Shown piece after piece: positions 4,054 through 21,300 of a stretch of 42,429 bases of DNA (the stretch's first letter is position 1; every line of letters starts with the position of its first letter). Source of the stretch: a phage; NCBI GenBank assembly GCA_012697465.1, contig GCA_012697465.1_4985.1. One strand, given 5' to 3'. The translations under genes were made by a program, and so were the position numbers. Below the pieces are notes generated by a model. The model was not told where the DNA came from. It did no database searches and saw nothing but the letters and a program-made list of their open reading frames with translations.

Positions 4054-4935
4054 ATGGCTACTATTGGACAACTCTATAAAGCAGGTGCCACCGAAGCAAA
4101 GCCGCGCAAGGTGTTTTGGGTGCCGCTGGCTGAACTGTATGTGGAAAATGGCTACAACATCCGTGACGTGGACCAGGCGCACGTTGAAGAATTCCGCGAT
4201 GCGTACCTGGCAGGTGAATATGTACCTCCGCTGACCGTGGAAGTGACGCAGCATGGCATCAAGGTGATTGACGGGCACCACCGCTTTGCCGGTGCCAAGA
4301 TGGCCGCAGAAACCGGCTTGGAACTGCGCCTGGAAGTGAACGACATCACCGGCACCAGTGAGGCTGACAAAATCGCGCTGATGGTCACCAGCAGCCAGGG
4401 CAAGCCGCTGGAACCGCTGGAACGCGCCAAAGCCTATGCGCGCCTGAAAGCGCAGGGCTGGACCAATGACGAGATAGCCAGGAAGGTAAAGCGCAGCCCG
4501 TCAGACGTGGCCAACATGCTTGCCCTGGCTGAATGCCCGGAACCCATCAAAGACATGGTGCGCGGCGGCCAGATGTCCTACGTGACCGCCACCGAACTGA
4601 CCCGCCAGCATGGCGCCGAAGCCGAAGCCGTGGCCGCACAGGCGCTGGAAGAAGCCAAAGCCGCTGGCAAGGATAAAGTAACAAAGAAATTCACCGAACC
4701 GAAGGCACCGAAAGCGCAGAAGTCCAAGCCGGAAGCCATCCAGCCACCGTTCGGCAAAGACAAGCTGACGCGCATGGCTGACCTGGCTGTGCATATCGAA
4801 CTGGTTCACAGCGATGAACGCCTGGAAGATGCCGAGGATGACGAATCCATGACCCTGCGCGCACCTGCTGGCGTGGTGCGTGAATTCATGGCGCTGGTGG
4901 CTGACTACGTTGGTGGGGTGAATGATGACCAATAA
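4054..4935 (+). CDS. ParB/Srx-like nuclease-domain protein with HTH region
   Basis: N-terminal region with IKVIDGHHRFAGA (ParB N-terminal domain GxxR-type box) followed by a helix-turn-helix-like segment WTNDEIARKVKRSPSDVANMLAL; acidic C-terminus. Confidence 0.6.
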   Translation: MATIGQLYKAGATEAKPRKVFWVPLAELYVENGYNIRDVDQAHVEEFRDAYLAGEYVPPLTVEVTQHGIKVIDGHHRFAGAKMAAETGLELRLEVNDITGTSEADKIALMVTSSQGKPLEPLERAKAYARLKAQGWTNDEIARKVKRSPSDVANMLALAECPEPIKDMVRGGQMSYVTATELTRQHGAEAEAVAAQALEEAKAAGKDKVTKKFTEPKAPKAQKSKPEAIQPPFGKDKLTRMADLAVHIELVHSDERLEDAEDDESMTLRAPAGVVREFMALVADYVGGVNDDQ

Positions 4936-5495: not shown

Positions 5496-5572
5496 TGGCG
5501 ACCCCTACAGGAATCGAACCTGTAACCTACAGCTTAGAAGGCTGTCGCTCTATCCGGTTGAGCTAAGGGGCC
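5496..5572 (-). tRNA. tRNA-Arg (anticodon UCU)
   Basis: 77-nt cloverleaf folded by hand on the minus strand: 7-bp acceptor stem, D arm, anticodon stem ACAGC/GCUGU with loop CUUCUAA, T arm ACAGG-UUCGAUU-CCUGU, encoded CCA end. Confidence 0.8.
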
Positions 5573-5876: not shown

Positions 5877-7088
5877 ATGCTGACAGAACGCCAGATACAG
5901 GCGGCCATGCGCGCCGTGACCAGTGAAACAGTGTTGAACGATGGGGCCGCAGGACGTGGCAGCGGAAGCCTGCGCCTGCGCATTCGTGCCGGTGCAAAAG
6001 GGCCGAACGCTACCTGGCAGGCCGTCTGGTGGAACGCCGGAAAACAGACCAGTAAGGCGCTTGGCCGCTACCCGGATTTGAGCCTGGCCGACGCGCGCCG
6101 GAAGTATGAAACCGAAGTGCGCGACGTGCTGACGGCTGGCCGTGACCCAAACGCAGTGGTTGCAATGGCCGAAACCCCGACCATTGAAAAATTGTTCCAG
6201 TCTTACATCCAGTACCTGCGCGACAAAGAGACGGCGACCACCCACACATCAGAACACCTGCTGCTGACCGGCAAATACAACGCCGCTGATTTGCTTGGCC
6301 GCAACACCATTGCGTCAACCATCGAACCTGCCGACATCGCCAACGTGCTGGCCAAAGGCGTGAAGCGTGGCGCACGCCGAACCACCGACATGCAGCGCAC
6401 CGCCATGATGGCCGCATTTAATTGGGCGATGAAATCGACACACGATTACACGCAGGAAAACCGCATGGATTGGGGGCTGAAATATAACCCTGTTGCAGCC
6501 GTTCCGCGCGACCAGGCAGCCAACCGCACGCTGGATAGAAACCTGTCAGCGGAGGAAATGAAACACGTATGGGATAACGCGCCGGAACAAAGCGGCGACG
6601 TGATGCGCCTGGTGATGTGCACCGGCCAGCGCGTGATTGAAGTCATGCGCATAGCTGGTGCTGACGTGGACCTGAAAGCCAGGCTGTGGACGATGCCAGC
6701 CAGGAAAACAAAGGGCCGCAAGCAAACCCACATGGTGCCGCTGACCACGCAGGCGGTGGACATCCTGGCCACGCTGATTGACCTGTACGGTGACGGTTAC
6801 CTGTTCCCTGCCCGCGCTGGCGCTAAGGGTGACATTATCGGAATCCCAAGCGTCAGCCGTGGTGCCAGCCGCATGGCAGGCATTAAGCCGTTCACCCCGC
6901 GCGACCTGCGCCGCACCTGGAAGTCACGCGCCGGTGACGCTGGCATTGACAGGTTCACGCGTGACCTTATCCAGCAGCACGCGCAGACTGACACCGGCAG
7001 CAAACATTATGACCGCTTTGACTACCTGCCGCAGATGCGTGACGCGATGACCAAATGGGAAGCCTGGCTGGCTGACGCGCTGAAATAA
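5877..7088 (+). CDS. int: Tyrosine site-specific integrase (P4-type)
   Basis: 403 aa; N-terminal arm-binding-like region (GSGSLRLRIRAGAKG...WQAVWW...YPDLSLADAR), catalytic-domain motifs TGQRVIEV, RDLRRTW, and C-terminal H...HYDRFDY...WEAWL tail; next to a tRNA gene. Confidence 0.85.
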   Translation: MLTERQIQAAMRAVTSETVLNDGAAGRGSGSLRLRIRAGAKGPNATWQAVWWNAGKQTSKALGRYPDLSLADARRKYETEVRDVLTAGRDPNAVVAMAETPTIEKLFQSYIQYLRDKETATTHTSEHLLLTGKYNAADLLGRNTIASTIEPADIANVLAKGVKRGARRTTDMQRTAMMAAFNWAMKSTHDYTQENRMDWGLKYNPVAAVPRDQAANRTLDRNLSAEEMKHVWDNAPEQSGDVMRLVMCTGQRVIEVMRIAGADVDLKARLWTMPARKTKGRKQTHMVPLTTQAVDILATLIDLYGDGYLFPARAGAKGDIIGIPSVSRGASRMAGIKPFTPRDLRRTWKSRAGDAGIDRFTRDLIQQHAQTDTGSKHYDRFDYLPQMRDAMTKWEAWLADALK

Positions 7089-9429: not shown

Positions 9430-10419
9430 TTACTGTGCGCCGGTGCCCATCACCTGGCTGTTTAAATCTTCAACGTCCTGCGCATCGCCGTTTGCGTTGG
9501 CGCGCTGTTCGTCATATGCGCGGGCGGCTTGCAACAATGATTGTTTGAATTCATCGCCCAGCTTTTTGCGAATTGCTGGTGGCGTTTTGTCCCAGCATTC
9601 CTGCGTGTACTGCTCACCCTGTTCTGTAACGCCGCGCAGCTTGTTGCGGTAGGCTTCTACCTTCGGATCCAACTTGTTGCCGCCCTGAACCCACTGACGA
9701 AGCGCCAAACCGTCCTGTGCGCTGATGTAGCCGGTTTCACGGCCCAAGATGCCGCGCAATTCTTCCGGGCACTTCATGACCTGCTGCGCGCTGCCAGAAT
9801 CCCACATCATCAGGCTGGCTGTCATTTCAAACATCACGTTCTTTTCCGTCACCGGCATGATGCCTTGCGGTTCATATTCCGTCTTACCGTTAACCTTCAC
9901 CAGTTTCACTTTTTCACGTGCGCGGATGCAGCAGATGATGTGCATGTTTGATTGTAGCAACGCGTTCATGAAGCGCTTGTGTTCAGCCTTCGCGCGGTTC
10001 CACTGCGGCTTCATCGGGTTGGCCAGCGTGGCGATTTCTTCGCAGCCGCCTGTTCCTTCCCATTCGTGACTGATGGAGTCGATCACCAGCACTTCAACGC
10101 TTGCCTGTTCAAATTCGCGGATGGCGTCAATGTATCGCTGCGGGCTGAAAGGCGGTTCTAAATCTCCAATCCAGAACGCGTCCGGGCGTTCTTTCAGTCC
10201 AAGTGATTCCTGGATTTTTTCATAAGTGTCATCACTGGCGTACAGTGAGCCACGGCGGTTTTCGGTATCCAGAAAACCAACCTTTGTTCCGTCGCCGTTG
10301 GCCAGCCCATACGCCAGCATAAGTGCTGACAGGGTTTTGCCACTGCCGCTGATACCTGCCAGGCCGATGACCAGGCGCGCGCCTTCACGTTCCGCTTTAC
10401 GAATATTAATTACTGCCAT
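9430..10419 (-). CDS. RecA-like/AAA ATPase (Sak4-like recombination mediator, putative)
   Basis: Walker A GLAGISGSGKT and Walker B-like LVIDSIS; sits between exonuclease and SSB. Confidence 0.5.
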   Translation of the reverse strand: MAVINIRKAEREGARLVIGLAGISGSGKTLSALMLAYGLANGDGTKVGFLDTENRRGSLYASDDTYEKIQESLGLKERPDAFWIGDLEPPFSPQRYIDAIREFEQASVEVLVIDSISHEWEGTGGCEEIATLANPMKPQWNRAKAEHKRFMNALLQSNMHIICCIRAREKVKLVKVNGKTEYEPQGIMPVTEKNVMFEMTASLMMWDSGSAQQVMKCPEELRGILGRETGYISAQDGLALRQWVQGGNKLDPKVEAYRNKLRGVTEQGEQYTQECWDKTPPAIRKKLGDEFKQSLLQAARAYDEQRANANGDAQDVEDLNSQVMGTGAQ

Positions 10420-10446: not shown

Positions 10447-11589
10447 TTAAGCCGCACCAATCAGGTGGGCGTTTTTGTTCGCGTGCCACGCTGGCAGGCT
10501 GATGGTCTGGATTTTGTCACCGTAGCCAGGCCATTCACCTGTGCGCACGCATTCTGCATAAACGCGCAAATCATGCTGGTACTGAGCGCGGCCAATTTCT
10601 ACGCCTTCGCTATCCAGTACATAAACACCAACTGCGTAAGGCGGTTTTTTCTCAACGGCGATAAACGCAAAGTGTTTAGGATAACCACGCCAGAAATCAG
10701 GGCGGCAGCGGCACAGAACGCCGGTCACCGGATCAGTCCAGTAAACTGATAATTCTGCTTTGCCTTCCTGCGGAGGATTGCATTTTCCCTGTTCCAACGC
10801 CAGGCGCGTGCCGTCCATGTAGTATGCGTGTTGCACATCATAGCGCCAGTTGGCTATTGATTTTGCAAACCCTTCCGGGCTGGCATCTTCGGTGGTTTTC
10901 AAGTCACCAATGATGTCTTTGACGTGGTGCAGGATAGCGAACGCAGCCTGGTGATTCATTACCGCGTCACGCATGGCAAAAATTTGTTCAAACGCTTCCG
11001 GTGACAGCACTTTGCGTTCGCTGTTATTCCGCTGCCATTCTTCCAGTACGTCTGACCACAGTGTGACTTCCACGCCGTTTTCGCGCAGCAGGTTGGCCAG
11101 TTCATGACGGCTGCCGCTGGTAGACAGTTTGCCAGGACGGTCAACATTCAACTGGTTGATGATTTCTTTCAGGTCTGGCGCTTTCATCGCGTTAAGCTGT
11201 TCAGTAGTCCAGGTTTCAACAGGCTGGTTTTCCAGGATGCGTTCAACCAGTTCGCCTTTGTTGCCACCAGTCAGCAACTTAGGCAGGCGGCCTTCGTTCA
11301 GCTTGTTGACCATTTCCACCAGCACTTCGCGGTCATCAATAGCATCAGGCACATCAGAACGTCGCAGCGCCAGGCAATAGGTTTTTGCGAATTCTTCCGG
11401 TTCAAGAATTGCCATATGCACAGCCGTGCCGATTTCCTGTGCTGGTGTTGGCGTACGGTCATTAGCAGCAGTCACAACAGCGTTGTAGTGCATCGGGCTG
11501 CGGTGCACCAAATCCAGGCCAGACTTACTGATGCCTGGGCCGCCGTGGTATTCAGCGTTTGGAATGCCTTCGTAAACTCCTGGTTTCAT
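10447..11589 (-). CDS. PD-(D/E)XK-type exonuclease (exodeoxyribonuclease VIII-like domain)
   Basis: N-terminus MKPGVYEGIPNAEYHGGPGISKSGLDL is characteristic of prophage exonuclease VIII-like nuclease domain proteins; first gene of the leftward operon. Confidence 0.55.
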   Translation of the reverse strand: MKPGVYEGIPNAEYHGGPGISKSGLDLVHRSPMHYNAVVTAANDRTPTPAQEIGTAVHMAILEPEEFAKTYCLALRRSDVPDAIDDREVLVEMVNKLNEGRLPKLLTGGNKGELVERILENQPVETWTTEQLNAMKAPDLKEIINQLNVDRPGKLSTSGSRHELANLLRENGVEVTLWSDVLEEWQRNNSERKVLSPEAFEQIFAMRDAVMNHQAAFAILHHVKDIIGDLKTTEDASPEGFAKSIANWRYDVQHAYYMDGTRLALEQGKCNPPQEGKAELSVYWTDPVTGVLCRCRPDFWRGYPKHFAFIAVEKKPPYAVGVYVLDSEGVEIGRAQYQHDLRVYAECVRTGEWPGYGDKIQTISLPAWHANKNAHLIGAA

Positions 11590-11861
11590 TCGTTACCTCG
11601 CAATTATTATTCAACGTGACTTCCGATTAACTGCGGTGAATTATGGCTGACGTGTTGTTATACTGTCAACTTCTTTATAACTAACATTGTTTAGATCAGC
11701 GTCACGCGGCCTGATCAACAAACCTTAGCTGTACATCAGCCATGCGTTTTTTGCACATCGCGGTTTGATTGACGTCAATGACCATTACTACTGGTTGCAA
11801 CTTCGCCACGTAGTAACATACAATTGCGAATACTTTAAATGATGGCGAATGAACGATAATT
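11590..11861. promoter_or_regulatory. Divergent early control region (leftward recombination operon / rightward replication operon)
   Basis: 272-bp AT-rich non-coding gap between divergently oriented operons; candidate -35/-10 hexamers (TTGACG, TTGCAA...TACAAT); no repressor gene adjacent. Confidence 0.35.
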
Positions 11862-13280
11862 ATGGGCGTAATACTTAGGGACTATCAATCCGACATTATC
11901 AATAGGGCGCGCCTTTCTATGCGGCGCAACCGGCGCGTGTTATTGCAGGCACCAACAGGCGCGGGGAAAACTGCGCTGGCGTCATTCATGGCTGGGGAAG
12001 CATCGGCCAAAGGCCAGCAGGTGTGGTTTATTTGCCACCGCGCTGAACTGGTATTACAGACCAGTTTGACATTCAGGAAGTTCGGCATTGACCACGGATT
12101 TATTGCCGCAGGCTATCCCATGAACCTGCGCGCCGGGGTGCAGGTGTGCAGCATCGACACCCTGAAAAACCGCCTGCACACCCTGCCCGCCCCTAAGCTG
12201 GCCATCATGGACGAAGCGCACCACTGTGGCGCGGCGGGTTGGGCGCGCGTCAACGCCTGGCTGTTTGAGAATGGCGCGTATGTCATCGGCCTGTCAGCTA
12301 CGCCAAAGCGCCTGGACGGCACCGGCCTGGATGACCACTTTGACGACATCGTGTTAGGGCCATCTGTGCGATGGCTGATGGATAACGGCCACCTGTCTGA
12401 CTATCGCATGTTCTGCCCGGACATCCCTGACATGAAGGGTGTACGCAAGCAGATGGGCGATTTCTCAAAAGGCGAAACCGCCGAGAAGATGGATAAGCCG
12501 AAACTAACCGGCAACATCATCAGCCACTGGCTGAAATACGCCAAAGGCATGAAAACGGTTGGCTTCGCGGTCAACATAGCGCACAGCCGCCACTTAACGC
12601 AGGCATTCGTTGATTCAGGCATCCGTGCCGCACACCTGGACGGCGGCACCGATAAGGCGGAACGTAAGCGCATCATCCAGGACTACGCCAACGACAACCT
12701 GGATGTGATTTTCAACGTGTCGCTGTTCGGTGAAGGTTTCGACCTGTCAGCCATCGCACAAACTGACGTGACGATTGACTGCCTGATTGACGCGCAGCCT
12801 ACACAATCATTGTCGCTGGTGTTGCAGAAAGATGGGCGCGTGTTGCGACCGTCCAAAGGCAAAACCGCCATCATTCTGGACCACGCAGGAAATGCGCTGC
12901 GTCATGGCTTCCCTGACGACGAACGCGAATGGTCACTGGCTGGCGATGACAGCGGCAGCAAATCCAGCAGTGCTGGTGGCCCACCGCCGCCAGTCATTTG
13001 CAAAGGCTGTTTCAACGCCATCCGCCGACCACTGCCGCCGAAGTGCCCGCACTGCCAGAAGGAACTACAGGCCGAAGCCAGAGAAATTGAAGTGGCAGAA
13101 GGCGAACTGCGCGAAATGGACGAACGCGCCAAAGAAAGCCTGCGCGCGAAGATGAAACGCGAGGAAGATGCTTGCAAGGATATTGGCGCACTGACCGCCC
13201 TGGCGATGAAACGCGGGCTGCCGAACCCATCAGGGTGGGCCATAGCGAAGATGGGCGGAAGAAGATTTAAGCGTAAATAG
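11862..13280 (+). CDS. Superfamily-2 DEAH-box helicase with C-terminal zinc ribbon
   Basis: Motif I APTGAGKT, motif II DEAHH, motif III SAT, motif VI QKDGRVLRP; CKGC...CPHC ribbon near the C-terminus. Confidence 0.8.
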   Translation: MGVILRDYQSDIINRARLSMRRNRRVLLQAPTGAGKTALASFMAGEASAKGQQVWFICHRAELVLQTSLTFRKFGIDHGFIAAGYPMNLRAGVQVCSIDTLKNRLHTLPAPKLAIMDEAHHCGAAGWARVNAWLFENGAYVIGLSATPKRLDGTGLDDHFDDIVLGPSVRWLMDNGHLSDYRMFCPDIPDMKGVRKQMGDFSKGETAEKMDKPKLTGNIISHWLKYAKGMKTVGFAVNIAHSRHLTQAFVDSGIRAAHLDGGTDKAERKRIIQDYANDNLDVIFNVSLFGEGFDLSAIAQTDVTIDCLIDAQPTQSLSLVLQKDGRVLRPSKGKTAIILDHAGNALRHGFPDDEREWSLAGDDSGSKSSSAGGPPPPVICKGCFNAIRRPLPPKCPHCQKELQAEAREIEVAEGELREMDERAKESLRAKMKREEDACKDIGALTALAMKRGLPNPSGWAIAKMGGRRFKRK

Positions 13281-16795: not shown

Positions 16796-19099
16796 ATGAG
16801 TGCACAACAAAACTATAAGGATTTGACTGAACAGGAAATTGCAGAAGCACTTTCCTACATTGACGCCGGTTGCGACCGTGAAACATGGGTGCGCATGGCT
16901 ATGGCGGTCAAATCGGAATTAGGCGACGGCGGTTTCACCGTCTGGAATGACTGGTCACGCCAGTCTGACAAGTACAACAGCAAAGACGCGCGCGACACCT
17001 GGAAATCAGTGAAGCGTCACGGCGGCATTGGCATTGGCACCCTGATTGGTGAGGCGCAGTTATTTGGCTTTTCGCTGAACGATAACGAACGCACACCGAT
17101 TTCTGCCGAAGAGATTCAGGCGCGTAAAAAACGCCGCGAAGAAGAAGAGCGCAAAGAACAACAACTGCGCGCAGAACGTATGGCGCAGGCAGCAGAGCAG
17201 GCGCGCAACATATGGGAATCAGCTACCGAACTGGAAGGAGATGAACACCCATACCTGAAACGCAAACTTGTTAAATCATTCGGGCTGCGCATCGGTCGTT
17301 TTCGTAACCAGGATGGCGCGCTACTGGTGCCAATCAGAAACATTGACGGGCAGATCACCAGCCTGCAAGCCATATTCCAGAACGAAAACCCACAGCTAGG
17401 GCGTGACCGTGATTACCTTCCTGGTGGTCAGAAACGTGGGTGCTTCCACGTCATTGGCAACAAACCAACTGGTGCAAATCCGGTTATTGTCATCTGTGAA
17501 GGCTATTCCACCGGTGCATCCATTCACATGTCTACCGGTTACTGCGTGGTGGTCGCGTTCGATGCCGGTAACGTGCCGACCGTAGCCAAGTTGATGCGTC
17601 AGCAGTTCGGACGCGCAACAATTGTTGTGGCAGCCGATAACGACCAGTGGCACGAAGATGGCAAGCAAAATGATGGTGTTCACTACGCGCGCCAGGCATC
17701 AATCACCACTGGTGGCCTGCTGGCGGTTCCTAAATTTACGCGCCTTAGCGATAAGCCTACCGACTTCAATGACCTGCACGTACTGGAAGGTTTAAACGCT
17801 GTAAGCAACCAGATTAACGCGGTGATACCGGAACCAGTGAATGATAACTTTCTGCCACTTGATGCCAGCGTAAACCCGTTCATGTTCCCGCACATGAGCC
17901 ACCAGCAAAAACCGCTTAACACGTGGGAAAACCTGGAATGGCTGCTTACCCAGTACGGCATCAAATCGCGTTACAACGAAATCAGCAAAGATGTGGTAGT
18001 TACGATCCCCGGCAAGGATTACGGCAACGACGCATCAGCTAACAGCGCATTGACTGAAATTGTCAGCCTGTGTGCCCGCAACGGTATGCCGTCTGGTTCC
18101 TGTGCTGAGTATGTAAAACTGATTGCCATGAGCAATCGCTACAACCCGGCATCTGAATTTATCACCGCAAAACCGTGGGATGGTGTGAGCCGCATTTATG
18201 ACCTGTGCGATACACTGGAAACGGCGGAAGGTTTTGACCGCAGCCTGGTGTTGATGATGGTTCGCCGCTGGTTGATTTCCGCCGTTGCTGCCGCGATGCA
18301 GCCAACTGGGTTCTACTCAAAAGGCGTTCTGGTGCTACAGGGTGAACAGTCGCTGGGGAAAACAGCATGGTTTCGCTCGCTGGTGCCGCCTACACTGCGC
18401 GAACTGATTAAGGTAGGGGCAACAATCGACCCGGCAAACAAAGATAGCGTCAGCAGCGCAATAGGCCGCTGGATGGTGGAGCTTGGCGAACTGGATGCAA
18501 CTTTCCGTAAATCGGACATCGCACGCCTTAAATCATTCATCAGCCAGGACCGTGACGAAATCCGCAGACCTTATGACCGGCTTGAATCGACCTACCAGCG
18601 CAGAACCGTGTTTTTTGCGTCAGTGAACCCGAAACACTTCCTGGCGGATGACACTGGGAACGTTCGCTGGTGGACTATCCCGGTAACGCGCATCAACTAC
18701 GAACACGATATTGATATGCAGCAGGTTTGGGCTGAAGTGGCGCAGTTGTACCGAGAAGGCGAACGCTGGTGGATGAACGCAGAAGAAGAAGCCATGCTGG
18801 AACAAGTTAACAAGGAACACGAAGCTATTGACCCGGTAGAGGAAATGATACTGATGCGTTACGAGTGGGGTTGCGACAGACCAGCAGCCTATACCGACCG
18901 TACAGCAACGCAGGTGCTGCAAGAAATTGGCTACGACAAGCCGAACAAGGCACAGACTACACATTGTGCAGGGGTGCTGAGAAAACTCACTGGTAAGCCT
19001 GCCAGGAAGTCTGGAAGCAATCGCCTGTTCAGCATTCCGCCGAAGGTGCCAAACCCTGACCACCGGCGATTCAATGACGATGATGACCGGCCATTTTGA
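16796..19099 (+). CDS. DNA primase (PriCT-2 + Toprim + VirE-like P-loop domain), P4-alpha-like replication protein
   Basis: N-terminal PriCT-like segment (DRETWVRMAMAV...FTVWNDW), Toprim core (VIVICEGYSTG...AADND), C-terminal Walker A QGEQSLGKT. Confidence 0.75.
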   Translation: MSAQQNYKDLTEQEIAEALSYIDAGCDRETWVRMAMAVKSELGDGGFTVWNDWSRQSDKYNSKDARDTWKSVKRHGGIGIGTLIGEAQLFGFSLNDNERTPISAEEIQARKKRREEEERKEQQLRAERMAQAAEQARNIWESATELEGDEHPYLKRKLVKSFGLRIGRFRNQDGALLVPIRNIDGQITSLQAIFQNENPQLGRDRDYLPGGQKRGCFHVIGNKPTGANPVIVICEGYSTGASIHMSTGYCVVVAFDAGNVPTVAKLMRQQFGRATIVVAADNDQWHEDGKQNDGVHYARQASITTGGLLAVPKFTRLSDKPTDFNDLHVLEGLNAVSNQINAVIPEPVNDNFLPLDASVNPFMFPHMSHQQKPLNTWENLEWLLTQYGIKSRYNEISKDVVVTIPGKDYGNDASANSALTEIVSLCARNGMPSGSCAEYVKLIAMSNRYNPASEFITAKPWDGVSRIYDLCDTLETAEGFDRSLVLMMVRRWLISAVAAAMQPTGFYSKGVLVLQGEQSLGKTAWFRSLVPPTLRELIKVGATIDPANKDSVSSAIGRWMVELGELDATFRKSDIARLKSFISQDRDEIRRPYDRLESTYQRRTVFFASVNPKHFLADDTGNVRWWTIPVTRINYEHDIDMQQVWAEVAQLYREGERWWMNAEEEAMLEQVNKEHEAIDPVEEMILMRYEWGCDRPAAYTDRTATQVLQEIGYDKPNKAQTTHCAGVLRKLTGKPARKSGSNRLFSIPPKVPNPDHRRFNDDDDRPF

Positions 19100-19104
19100 T
19101 TAAT

Positions 19105-19130
19105 AACCCGCTTCGGCGGGTTTTGTTTTT
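19105..19130 (+). terminator. Rho-independent terminator after primase
   Basis: CCCGC-TTCG-GCGGG hairpin followed by TTTTGTTTTT. Confidence 0.55.
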
Positions 19131-19169
19131 ATTGATAGGTATAAGCGATTATGTGTTTACCAAAGTAAA
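19131..19169 (+). promoter_or_regulatory. Conserved ~40-bp promoter/operator-like element, copy B (ATTGATAGGTATAAGCGATTA...TTTACCAAAGTAAA)
   Basis: Matches 13288-13328 at about 36 positions; followed by TAATAT -10-like hexamer. Confidence 0.5.
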
Positions 19170-19219
19170 TACTAATATGTGTTTAAGAAGTTAAATGCAT
19201 CAAAACGAGGTAATGCGAA

Positions 19220-20122
19220 ATGAAACAAGTAACGATTGACACCGTGCGCGAGCGCATAGCGGAACTGGAAATGGTCAACAGTCACGGTGAACTGTCACTG
19301 CGCGGCGAATTTGAATTGGCGTGTTTGCGGCAGTTGGCGGCATTACAAGAGCGAGTTGCGGAACTGGAAGAAAACGACCGCGAACAAATGGATGAACTGT
19401 ACCGAAGAAATGCGACGATTCACCGGCTGCAACAGCAGGCATCGCAGGTAGTGACGGTCGCGCCGGTAGTGCCGGATGAAATGACACCGGAAATGATGCG
19501 CGCAGTCCAGTTGAATAGCGAACTTGGTGCGTATGCAGTGTCAAACTTATCTGGCGCATATGACCTGTTCTCCGAATTCTGGAAGGTGGCCCGCAGCGCC
19601 GCCATGCTCAACCAGGCGCACCAGGAACCAGACACAGACAACACCGCGCAGCAGTTCGAGGCGTTGGCCACCAGCGCGCAGCGTGAACCAGTGGCTGCGG
19701 TGAAGCACTACACCGGGAATGAATACCCCACTCTGAAATTTGCGCAGAATGAATGGTGCGTATGCGGTGACCGTGATGATGCGCAGGAACTGGCTGACGC
19801 CATCAACGCACTGGCCACCAGAGCGGGAAGCGGCAAGAGTGAACACATGTTGAATGCGGAACGGATAGCCAGGGAAGCGCAAGCACTGTCTGACAGGCTG
19901 AACGCCACCAACGCGGTGCATCCCCGCGTTAGTGGTTGGTCAGAGCGTCAGCAAAAGGTGATTTCTTATGCGCTTTGGCGTTTCAGTTGCGCCGCTTATC
20001 AAAAGGCCAATCAGGCTGCACAGACAAATAACAAAGACATGTTTGATCGCTTTATTCGTGACGCACGATGCGCCGAGGAAATACGCGAGGAATTCACCAG
20101 CGCGTGGGTCGGCAAGCTATGA
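19220..20122 (+). CDS. Hypothetical protein (coiled-coil N-terminus)
   Basis: 300-aa ORF downstream of conserved element copy B; no motif recognised. Confidence 0.5.
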   Translation: MKQVTIDTVRERIAELEMVNSHGELSLRGEFELACLRQLAALQERVAELEENDREQMDELYRRNATIHRLQQQASQVVTVAPVVPDEMTPEMMRAVQLNSELGAYAVSNLSGAYDLFSEFWKVARSAAMLNQAHQEPDTDNTAQQFEALATSAQREPVAAVKHYTGNEYPTLKFAQNEWCVCGDRDDAQELADAINALATRAGSGKSEHMLNAERIAREAQALSDRLNATNAVHPRVSGWSERQQKVISYALWRFSCAAYQKANQAAQTNNKDMFDRFIRDARCAEEIREEFTSAWVGKL

Positions 20123-20436
20123 GCCTGGCAACCGATATTCTGTGGCACGCTTTTGTTACGCAGCATAAACGGAAGTCGAAGCCAAAACCAGCACCAGTGG
20201 TGGCAAAACCAAAACCGGCAGTCACAGCAATCAGCAACCGCAACCTGCACCTGGCGCGCGTTCCATATTGTCAAAGGCGTGATGAAATGTGGCAGACGCG
20301 ATTGATTGATGGAAATCGGAAGATAACATTGGGAAGATTCCACACACTGCAACGCGCACAGATAGCATTGCGACTTTGGCACCTGTGGAAGAAAAGAGGA
20401 TATACCGACATCCCAACCGGACCAAACCGCGATTGA
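20119..20436 (+). CDS. AP2-like DNA-binding domain protein (putative)
   Basis: ATG overlapping upstream stop; MWQTRLIDGNRKITLGRFHTLQRAQIALRLW resembles the AP2/ERF-type beta-sheet DNA-binding fold. Confidence 0.35.
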   Translation: MSLATDILWHAFVTQHKRKSKPKPAPVVAKPKPAVTAISNRNLHLARVPYCQRRDEMWQTRLIDGNRKITLGRFHTLQRAQIALRLWHLWKKRGYTDIPTGPNRD

Positions 20437-20440
20437 AAAG

Positions 20441-20467
20441 TAACCGCCTTCGGGCGGTTTTTTCTTT
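20441..20467 (+). terminator. Rho-independent terminator
   Basis: AACCGCC-TTCG-GGCGGTT hairpin followed by TTTTTTCTTTGG. Confidence 0.6.
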
Positions 20468-20523
20468 GGTTGATTTAACAATATTAACCACTTTTTCTGG
20501 TAAGTAATTGTCATACAAATGCT

Positions 20524-20800
20524 ATTTGGGACTATCTATGGTCCCAAATGGGACTATCTTTTTTTGAGCTGGTCCCACGTTAAGTTACTGATATTAATAA
20601 CGAAAACACCATTTGGGACTATAAGGGACTATCTTTTTATAAAACATTATTTATAAATAAAGGGGGAGTAATAGTATATATAGGGAAATTTGGTCCCACT
20701 TGTCCCAAATCAGCCAGAAAATGGCGTTTTCTTTAAGTTAATCAATAGCATAACAGTGGGACTATCTTTTGCTGAGATAGTCCCAAGTTAGTCCCTTGTT
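20524..20800. repeat. Iteron-like array: about 11 direct and inverted copies of TGGGAC(T/C)ATCT around an AT-rich core
   Basis: Copies at about 20528, 20538(inv), 20550, 20571(inv), 20615, 20625, 20692(inv), 20702(inv), 20758, 20775(inv), 20791(inv); includes two perfect inverted-repeat pairs; no ORF. Confidence 0.65.
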
Positions 20801-20865
20801 ACTTTCGTATATTCTGTGTGCTACAATCCCCATATTGACTTTTATTTATAATTATTGGGGGTTAC

Positions 20866-21300
20866 ATGGAATTACCGCGCACTGTGCAGGAAATAGCTGA
20901 CGTTATTGGCCGTGAACGTGCGCTTTTTCTTATCGGACAACTGCCAAAACTGTGGGTGCCATCGCAGCAATACCACAAAGTCATCCTGTATGTACCAAAG
21001 CGGATTCGACCCAATGACCCACTGGTGAAAATCCTGGGGTGGCATGATTCCAGCAAGATGGTGCAGCACTTCGGAGGTGAAATGCTTCACCCGGCTAATT
21101 GTGAATACATTTACCGCCATTTCATTCACCGCAGCATTAAGCGGATGCACAGCGAAGGAATGGACGCAAAAGCTATTGCGGAACTTCTTGACGTGTCAGA
21201 GCGCACCGTTAAGCGCCATTGCACTGACAAACCCCACAAAGACACATCACCTGCAAATGACAACCATCAGCACCGACTACTAATGACTACGGGGCAATAA
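20866..21300 (+). CDS. Mor/C-family transcriptional activator (putative late-gene activator)
   Basis: 144 aa; central ...ILYVPK... segment and C-terminal HTH AIAELLDVSERTVKRH; directly upstream of the lysis and packaging genes. Confidence 0.4.
   Translation: MELPRTVQEIADVIGRERALFLIGQLPKLWVPSQQYHKVILYVPKRIRPNDPLVKILGWHDSSKMVQHFGGEMLHPANCEYIYRHFIHRSIKRMHSEGMDAKAIAELLDVSERTVKRHCTDKPHKDTSPANDNHQHRLLMTTGQ

Follow-up and report, generated by a model that had tools for sequence, protein, structure and literature searches.

The stretch of DNA examined here, called the window throughout (42,429 nucleotides, 42.4 kb), is from a Jilinvirus-like myovirus of the Iiscvirinae, whose closest relatives are vB_EcoM_ECO1230-10 and ET-SD-TH. 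Therapy-oriented collections make use of small myoviruses such as Jilinvirus and other Iiscvirinae. The genus was called not well characterised in a 2025 paper (PMC11990801), and a literature search found no description of a published origin for Jilinvirus or Iiscvirinae. Between the replication genes and the late genes of the window lies a non-coding gap with short repeats in both orientations. This locus raises the question of whether the repeats form a replication origin or an array of operators, and which phage protein recognizes them. An earlier note on this DNA had read them as iterons flanking an AT-rich unwinding element, with an operator array as the alternative. The comparisons described below point very strongly to the primase-helicase as the protein for which the array (TGGGACTA sites) is the cognate site, and they make it probable that the array is the replication origin of the phage, of the iteron type.

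The repeat array and the layout of the gap

The gap, previously put at about 430 bp, measures 429 bp (20437-20865) and extends from the stop codon of a small ORF to the ATG (20866) of the late-activator gene. It contains 11 GGGAC/GTCCC cores in both orientations, five on the plus strand (starts 20528, 20550, 20615, 20625, and 20758) and six on the minus strand (20541, 20572, 20693, 20702, 20780, and 20791), matching the approximately 11 copies that the earlier note had counted. TGGGAC occurred 11 times in the 42.4-kb window, and nine of these occurrences fell inside 20527-20785. With one mismatch or none, GGGACTATCT gave eight matches in the window, where 0.59 were expected, and none of 100 shuffles reached this number. 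Six of the eight were located in the array, within 270 bp; the other two, at 11878 and 35504, were isolated, and motif counts revealed no second iteron cluster elsewhere in the window. The full GGGACTATCT was present at five array sites and the variant GGGACTAACT at one more, and the remaining five sites read GGGACCA or GGGACAA, one of them being GGGACTATAA. Of the 11-mer proposed earlier, TGGGAC(T/C)ATCT, the core was found at all 11 sites, but only six sites extended to the full length. Because the complete GGGACTATCT is limited to five sites, the shared repeat unit is one of about 8-10 nt, A-N2-T-GGGAC-(T/C)-A, and not an 11-mer. Both inverted repeats described before were recovered exactly, ATTTGGGAC-N8-GTCCCAAAT at 20524-20549 and TGGGACTATCT-N7-AGATAGTCCCA at 20757-20785, and the central AT-rich run was located at 20647-20683.

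Five GGGAC-type arrays, those of the window, ECO1230-10, ET-SD-TH, and the IMG/VR contigs L017 and L022, were aligned (mean column identity 90%). All 55 core columns were invariant, as compared with 148 of the 224 non-core columns (Fisher p = 2.4e-9). The alignment indicates that the array repeats are under selection. A 45-aa ORF inside the array (20519-20656) was rejected as a gene because it consists of iteron sequence and relatives with other repeats lack it.

From left to right, the gap opens with an intrinsic terminator on the plus strand (20442-20467; AACCGCCTTCGGGCGGTT followed by a T-run), which was identified by a terminator scan, closes the early/replication operon, and is kept as a hairpin in nearly all relatives regardless of repeat class. 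With respect to RNA elements, Rfam yielded only a sub-threshold match on this terminator region (22.7 bits against a gathering score of 55). The left iteron cluster (20524-20577) comprises the cores at 20528(+), 20541(-), 20550(+), and 20572(-), and relatives carry GTCACC-type repeats at the matching positions. It is followed by an inner direct pair on the plus strand (20611-20634; ATTTGGGACTATAAGGGACTATCT, counterpart in relatives AGGTGACTAAGGGTGACAAG) that points toward the AT-rich centre. This centre (20634-20683; AT 75-80%) is a candidate DNA-unwinding element and, according to nearest-neighbour energies, the least stable 50-mer in the whole window (-49.4 kcal/mol versus a mean of -72.2, sd 4.9). 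On the other side, an inner pair on the minus strand (20693-20710; GGTCCCACTTGTCCCAAAT, counterpart in relatives TGTCACCTTAGTCACC) is opposed to the left pair. The right iteron cluster (20754-20797; cores 20758(+), 20780(-), and 20791(-)) contains the second inverted repeat as a perfect palindrome.

Immediately left of the right inner iterons lies a conserved non-iteron element, ATAGGGAAAT (20680-20689, plus strand). Similar sequences, ATAGGAAAT, ATAGGAAC, or TAGAAAA, occupy the same place in L008, L010, L013, L011, and L012, which belong to other iteron classes. This ATAGG(G)AAAT-type element (L008, ~38645; L013, ~11538) was also seen downstream of the primase stop in the distant contigs L045 and L097, and it could be a start site for priming or melting or a site for a host factor. 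Within the AT-rich centre, 20647-20666 (TTATTTATAAATAAAGGGGG) is an ~85% copy of the leader/ribosome-binding region of the late-activator gene at 20842-20861 (TTATTTATAATTATTGGGGG), and many relatives have a G-run inside the centre. The interval from the right inner iterons to the right cluster contains TAATCAAT (20739-20746), which marks a "...TTTATAAATCAA..." block that is kept in most relatives; this block is vaguely similar to the beginning of an IHF site and falls short of the full consensus.

The array is followed by a putative late-activator promoter, to which we assigned the extended -10 element TGcTACAAT (20819-20827, plus strand) by reading the sequence. The array ends 24 nt upstream of this element; in relatives, the last iteron is about 15 to 45 nt away from the -10, and GCTACAAT at the promoter is kept. 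No recognisable -35 was found, and a sigma-70 scan of the region gave neither a full promoter here nor a promoter inside the array. The window and ECOO78 differ in a block whose end is at 20820. The gene for the late transcriptional activator (20866-21300, plus strand; 144 aa) matched PHROG 836 (E = 7e-30), and helix-turn-helix matches were obtained for its C-terminal part. Lysis genes and the terminase come next, and the operon upstream of the array consists of replication genes. The small upstream ORF (20068/20122-20436; 122/105 aa) was without a Pfam hit and is AP2-like by eye. GC skew was tried as an origin marker and discarded; the cumulative skew turns at ~7-12 kb at the divergent gene cluster and follows gene orientation.

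Relatives with other repeats and the protein that follows the repeat

Relatives shared the order of terminator, iteron cluster, two direct iterons, AT-rich centre, two inverted iterons, cluster, and late-activator promoter. GGGAC arrays homologous to that of the window were those of the four relatives aligned above. In ECOO78, PT1, HeidiAbel, ep3, Alux-21, KA2-1, and Arya, every site read GGTGAC/GTCACC, and the terminator and the promoter-proximal sequence were unchanged. More distant phages and contigs had the same layout with further repeat classes, namely GTGACCA (Persinger), TGGTCAT, TGACTA, AGTGAC, GGTTACA, GTACTC, CAGTG(C/T)A, and GTGYA, and GGGAC recurred in the distant PPpW-3, L021, L024, and L026. 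In each of the 19 relatives for which both were found, the late-activator gene came immediately after the array. In the distant contigs L045, L046, L096, and L097 it came right after the stop codon of the primase-helicase gene. Because the layout of L045 and L046 starts at this stop codon and no late-activator homologue was detectable in either contig, the array belongs with the primase-helicase gene and not with the late activator.

Individual relatives showed peculiarities of their own. In phage ep3 (L005), an insertion at 4405-4720 separates the conserved terminator from the array; it consists of an additional ORF of ~95 aa, which is unannotated, and another terminator. The array centre of PPpW-3 (L014, 13960-14030) carries its own inverted and direct GATACAGGTATCTA repeats and is not a plain AT-rich stretch. 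In L034, the region ahead of the late-activator gene (11546-12025) contains repeats of two families, GTACTC surrounding an AT-rich stretch and GGGGACA adjacent to the gene. A profile search of genome contigs with the primase profile yielded two loci, neither of them informative, and a search for prophage copies gave no megablast match in 5,426 complete E. coli genomes. The integrase of the window is 97.5% identical to that of HeidiAbel and is encoded next to tRNA-Arg (window 5877-7088, 5496-5572, 11590-11861). No homologue of the CI-like repressor, which HeidiAbel and Arya encode between the exonuclease and helicase genes, was found in the window. Because this repressor is missing beside an integrase, the lysogeny module looks incomplete.

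Comparison with relatives for co-variation between the motif and a protein had been proposed in the earlier note. A per-ORF identity table of the window ORFs against seven genomes was compiled, and the outcome was positive: the repeat follows the C-terminal domain of the primase-helicase and no other protein. The primase-helicase was the only window ORF that separated by repeat class (99/98% identity within the class versus 76-82% outside), and the class signal was concentrated in its last ~70 residues. These residues were 84-88% identical among the GGTGAC phages of Escherichia, Klebsiella, and Enterobacter versus 59-63% to the window. Between L026 (GGGAC) and L025 (TGGTCAT), the body of the protein was 90% identical and the C-terminal domain 58%. 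In L017 and L022, the body was nearest to that of KA2-1 (GGTGAC; 88% nucleotide identity), the C-terminal domain was 95% identical to that of the window, and the iterons were GGGAC. Judging by these identities, the body and the C-terminal domain are decoupled. The AP2-like protein was 73% identical between the window and ECO1230-10, which share the repeat, versus 82-84% between ECO1230-10 and ECOO78/HeidiAbel (Bas97), which have a different one. The sequences from the gene end to the array recombine independently; therefore, a single inherited block does not explain the coupling of domain and repeat.

Other proteins were considered as specificity partners and rejected. Identity of the late activator was 96% with ECOO78, whose repeat differs, and 63-65% with L017 and L022, whose repeat is that of the window. 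The ParB-HTH protein (4054-4935) was 95-97% identical in phages with the other repeat and 48-56% identical in KA2-1 and Arya, which share GGTGAC with those phages. Identity patterns of the AP2-like protein, the small repressor, and the DEAD/ResIII helicase did not follow the repeat, and neither the separate helicase (11862-13280) nor the AAA_24 protein (9430-10419) tracked the motif. The latter, encoded on the minus strand and annotated as "replicative DNA helicase" in relatives, matched only AAA_24. Since its gene sits with those for exonuclease VIII and SSB, we read it as an ATPase that probably acts in recombination and not as the replicative helicase.

The wing of the C-terminal domain was then compared across loci by per-ORF extraction. 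The sequence [RK]KSGS was present at eight of eight GGGAC loci and at none of 20 others; in all eight it occurred after LTG in the context x2-3-[RK]KSGS-x-R-(L/Y)-(F/Y). The wing read RK(T/S)KNGRFF in GGTGAC loci, RRTASKRLF in Persinger, K(R/P)KA(S/K)GRYF in TGGTCA/TGACTA loci, and (K/R)RSNG in all GTGYA-type loci. The combination of [RK]KSGS with GGGAC was found in at least three separate lineages. At least five GGGAC cores within 350 bp downstream were counted at seven of the eight KSGS loci versus two of the 20 others (p = 2e-4). The eighth KSGS locus, L096, had four GGGAC cores within 269 bp, where the contig ends. The two loci that reached this count without KSGS were L031, whose cluster is located apart from the array, and L034, with its GGGGACA repeats near the late-activator gene. 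L034 is either an exception to the correspondence of wing and iteron or involves a second binding protein.

Out-of-sample predictions were made from protein-database matches to the C-terminal 167 residues. The wing of P0007, PKKSGSNRLYS, predicted GGGAC, and its contig contains TTGTCCCA twice and GGGACAA twice, starting ~110 nt past the stop. The wing of P0012, SKRSNGKNLV, predicted GTGYA, and its contig contains CAGTGTA-type iterons (CAGTGTAAC/CAGTGTATC) around an AT-rich centre. Both blind predictions were thus correct, and C-terminal domain and wing follow the iteron class in at least three lineages. These correspondences suggest indirectly that each initiator is matched only to its cognate iterons, and the wing may represent a short readable recognition code for the iteron that recurs in unrelated lineages.

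GGGAC/TGGGAC was scarce outside the array of the window (10 observed versus ~60 expected under an order-1 model). Avoidance of the iteron was considered as the cause and rejected. In all seven Jilinvirus genomes checked (L006-L012), GGGAC/GTCCC was ~3-6-fold rarer than in the order-1 model with any iteron, and depletion of GGTGAC was not seen anywhere among the genomes checked. Because the GGGAC depletion is equally present in GGTGAC-using relatives, it is a trait of composition that extends over the lineage. It may be due to a lineage-wide composition or codon effect or to avoidance of something else.

The primase-helicase and the function of the array

The primase-helicase gene (16796-19099, plus strand) encodes a protein of 767 aa assigned to PHROG 2249, DNA primase. 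Pfam matches comprised PriCT_2 (aa 16-86), a Toprim primase domain (Toprim_3, aa 231-332), and a VapE-like SF3 ATPase (aa 460-676, E = 2.3e-51), and DUF5906 matched only below the cut-off. A phmmer search against the PDB matched aa 443-633 to the SaPI1 Rep1-DNA structure 7PDS (7pds_A, E = 9.3e-18). By BLASTP, the Toprim part was 28% identical to P4 alpha over 251 columns (E = 3e-16), and no similarity to P4 alpha was found outside the Toprim region. For the C-terminal domain, predicted to bind DNA, structure prediction returned a winged helix (aa ~680-750, 18833-19045, plus strand) with a pLDDT of about 90. Its putative recognition helix, KAQTTHCAGVLRKLT, spans aa 718-732 (18947-18991, plus strand), and the wing hairpin RKSGSNRLFSI spans aa 737-747 (19004-19036, plus strand).

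The array begins 1.4 kb past the stop codon (19099), with two ORFs, 19220-20122 and 20122-20436, in between. The segment from the primase gene to the array (19100-20436) is a hot spot of gene exchange across relatives: the 300-aa ORF 19220-20122 of the window had no family match, a DNA methyltransferase is encoded at this place in ECOO78 and ep3, and other gene sets are found in KA2-1, Arya, Persinger, and PPpW-3.

Binding, melting, self-loading, and origin function of the array and the primase-helicase are inferred here as the following sequence of steps. The C-terminal winged helix would recognize the 11 TGGGAC(T/C)A sites. Hexamers might assemble on the inner pairs 20615/20625 (+) and 20693/20702 (-), facing each other across 20634-20683, and melt this AT-rich segment. 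The SF3 helicase would load itself at the melted centre, the Toprim domain would lay down primers, and the host polymerase would extend from them; no DNA polymerase is annotated in ECO1230-10, the closest relative. The interpretation as an origin, first raised in the earlier note, gains support from the co-variation, from the Rep1 homology of the helicase part, and from the position of the least stable duplex at the centre.

Other explanations of the array have to be weighed against an origin recognized by the primase-helicase. The repeats could serve transcription only, as operators of the late-activator promoter bound by the C-terminal domain of the primase-helicase or by another protein, with replication starting elsewhere. 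The short distance of 24 nt to the extended -10 of a promoter that lacks a recognisable -35, together with the adjacency to the late-activator gene in 19 of 19 relatives, would fit such a control region, as would the situation in GGTGAC-class phages, whose last iteron, TGGTCA, takes the -35 position, 17 nt ahead of TACAAT. However, the spacing between the last iteron and the -10 varies as described above, and in L045 and L046 the array follows the primase-helicase gene with no late-activator homologue detectable. Furthermore, the least stable AT-rich centre with its inward-facing iterons is without an obvious operator role, and the late activator, the small repressor, and the AP2-like protein do not track the motif. 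A purely transcriptional function appears unlikely; because the array abuts the promoter, operator activity is conceivable as a secondary role. The array might also resemble crr of P4 and act as a replication enhancer in cis, with the initiator bound to it and initiation at a second site. In P4, the crr iterons directly follow the terminator of alpha, at a distance of 4.5 kb from the true ori, and the array of the window is likewise preceded by a terminator. We regard this as very unlikely, given that the window has no second cluster, only the two solitary matches to GGGACTATCT, and that the array itself holds the candidate for unwinding.

That the repeats are sites for some other phage protein is hardly credible. 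They would have to be a parS centromere bound by the ParB-like protein or else be recognized by the AP2-like protein or the late activator, and the window does encode a ParB-HTH protein, an upstream product that is AP2-like by eye (20122-20436), and a late activator with a helix-turn-helix; however, the identities of all three fail to follow the repeat class. It is next to impossible that the repeats are functionless, by chance or through decay, in an AT-rich spacer; only the short length of the core could be cited for this, and the shuffle test, the invariant core columns, and the conservation of the architecture across genera speak against it.

An origin that doubles as a late-gene switch was also considered. 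It starts from the outermost iterons abutting a promoter that lacks a -35 and from the iteron at the -35 position in GGTGAC-class relatives. Late-activator transcription would be gated either by primase-helicase bound at the origin or by passage of the first forks, so that late transcription would be coupled to replication. Such coupling would explain why, in Jilinvirus and related genera, the origin has stayed at this promoter despite the variable genes inserted between it and the primase gene. We rate this idea as rather doubtful because the spacing from iteron to -10 is so variable across relatives.

If the array and the primase-helicase are the origin and its initiator, locating them yields a minimal replicon for engineering that consists of one gene and 350 bp, and the position of the array is a target for marker-frequency studies. 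The relatives would supply a natural set of orthogonal initiator/origin pairs. The link between the five-residue wing motif and the iteron core may make origin sequences predictable from the initiator in metagenomic phages, and the C-terminal domain of the primase-helicase could serve as a tractable system for specificity switching in winged helices.

Comparison with known initiator-origin systems

The closest parallels are found in staphylococcal pathogenicity islands and in P4. SaPI Reps are self-loading initiator-helicases whose C-terminal winged helix binds 6-12 penta- or hexanucleotide iterons right after rep; their ori has an AT-rich centre with at least two iterons per side in opposite orientation, and in SaPI5 primase and Rep are fused as PriRep5 (PMC9371898). 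The window protein likewise combines primase and helicase in one chain, its ATPase part (aa 443-633) is homologous to Rep1 (PDB 7PDS), and a winged helix is predicted at its C terminus. Iterons are short in both systems, in the range of penta- to octanucleotides; the 11 of the window fall within the range of 6-12 copies, surround an AT-rich centre, and have opposed inner pairs with at least two iterons per side, and initiator specificity appears to go with iteron sequence in both systems. Differences are also evident. The SaPI ori lies directly after rep, whereas in the window 1.34 kb with variable ORFs lie between the stop codon and the array. The window represents a complete myovirus, not a satellite, and its host is Gram-negative; the N terminus of the protein consists of PriCT_2 and a DnaG-type Toprim domain. 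In addition, the putative origin abuts the late-activator promoter and has outer iteron clusters with palindromic pairs.

Replication of P4 depends on host polymerase, as is proposed for the window phage, and the type I iteron of P4 is TGTTCACC, to which the iteron of the window is unrelated in sequence. P4 alpha is composed of a DnaG-type Toprim primase, an SF3 helicase, and a C-terminal winged-helix origin binder (PMC2777425). The window protein has the same domain order and a homologous Toprim part (Toprim_3 in both), and both systems use short iterons in both orientations, with crr also placed right after the terminator of the gene. However, alpha matches Zn_Ribbon_Prim, D5_N, DUF5906, and Pox_D5, whereas the window protein matches PriCT_2 and VapE-like, and P4 needs two iteron regions in cis, ori and crr, whereas the window has a single cluster.

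Initiators of theta plasmids and the lambda O protein are neither helicases nor primases and recruit host DnaB, and their iterons are 17-22 bp long and mostly direct. The units in the window, in contrast, are 8-10 nt long and occur in both orientations. No Rep_3 or lambda-O-like initiator was found among the window proteins scanned with Pfam or in the annotation of ECO1230-10. The likeness to pPS10, R6K, RK2, and lambda O/ori lies in an initiator acting on a repeated site beside an AT-rich unwinding element (PMC4980987).

On the strength of domain homology and layout, the system thus appears to work like SaPI Rep/ori and P4 alpha/ori and to belong to the SaPI-Rep-related (VapE) branch. Systems of this kind are already familiar from P4 and the SaPIs, so the present finding adds to what is known without overturning any of it.
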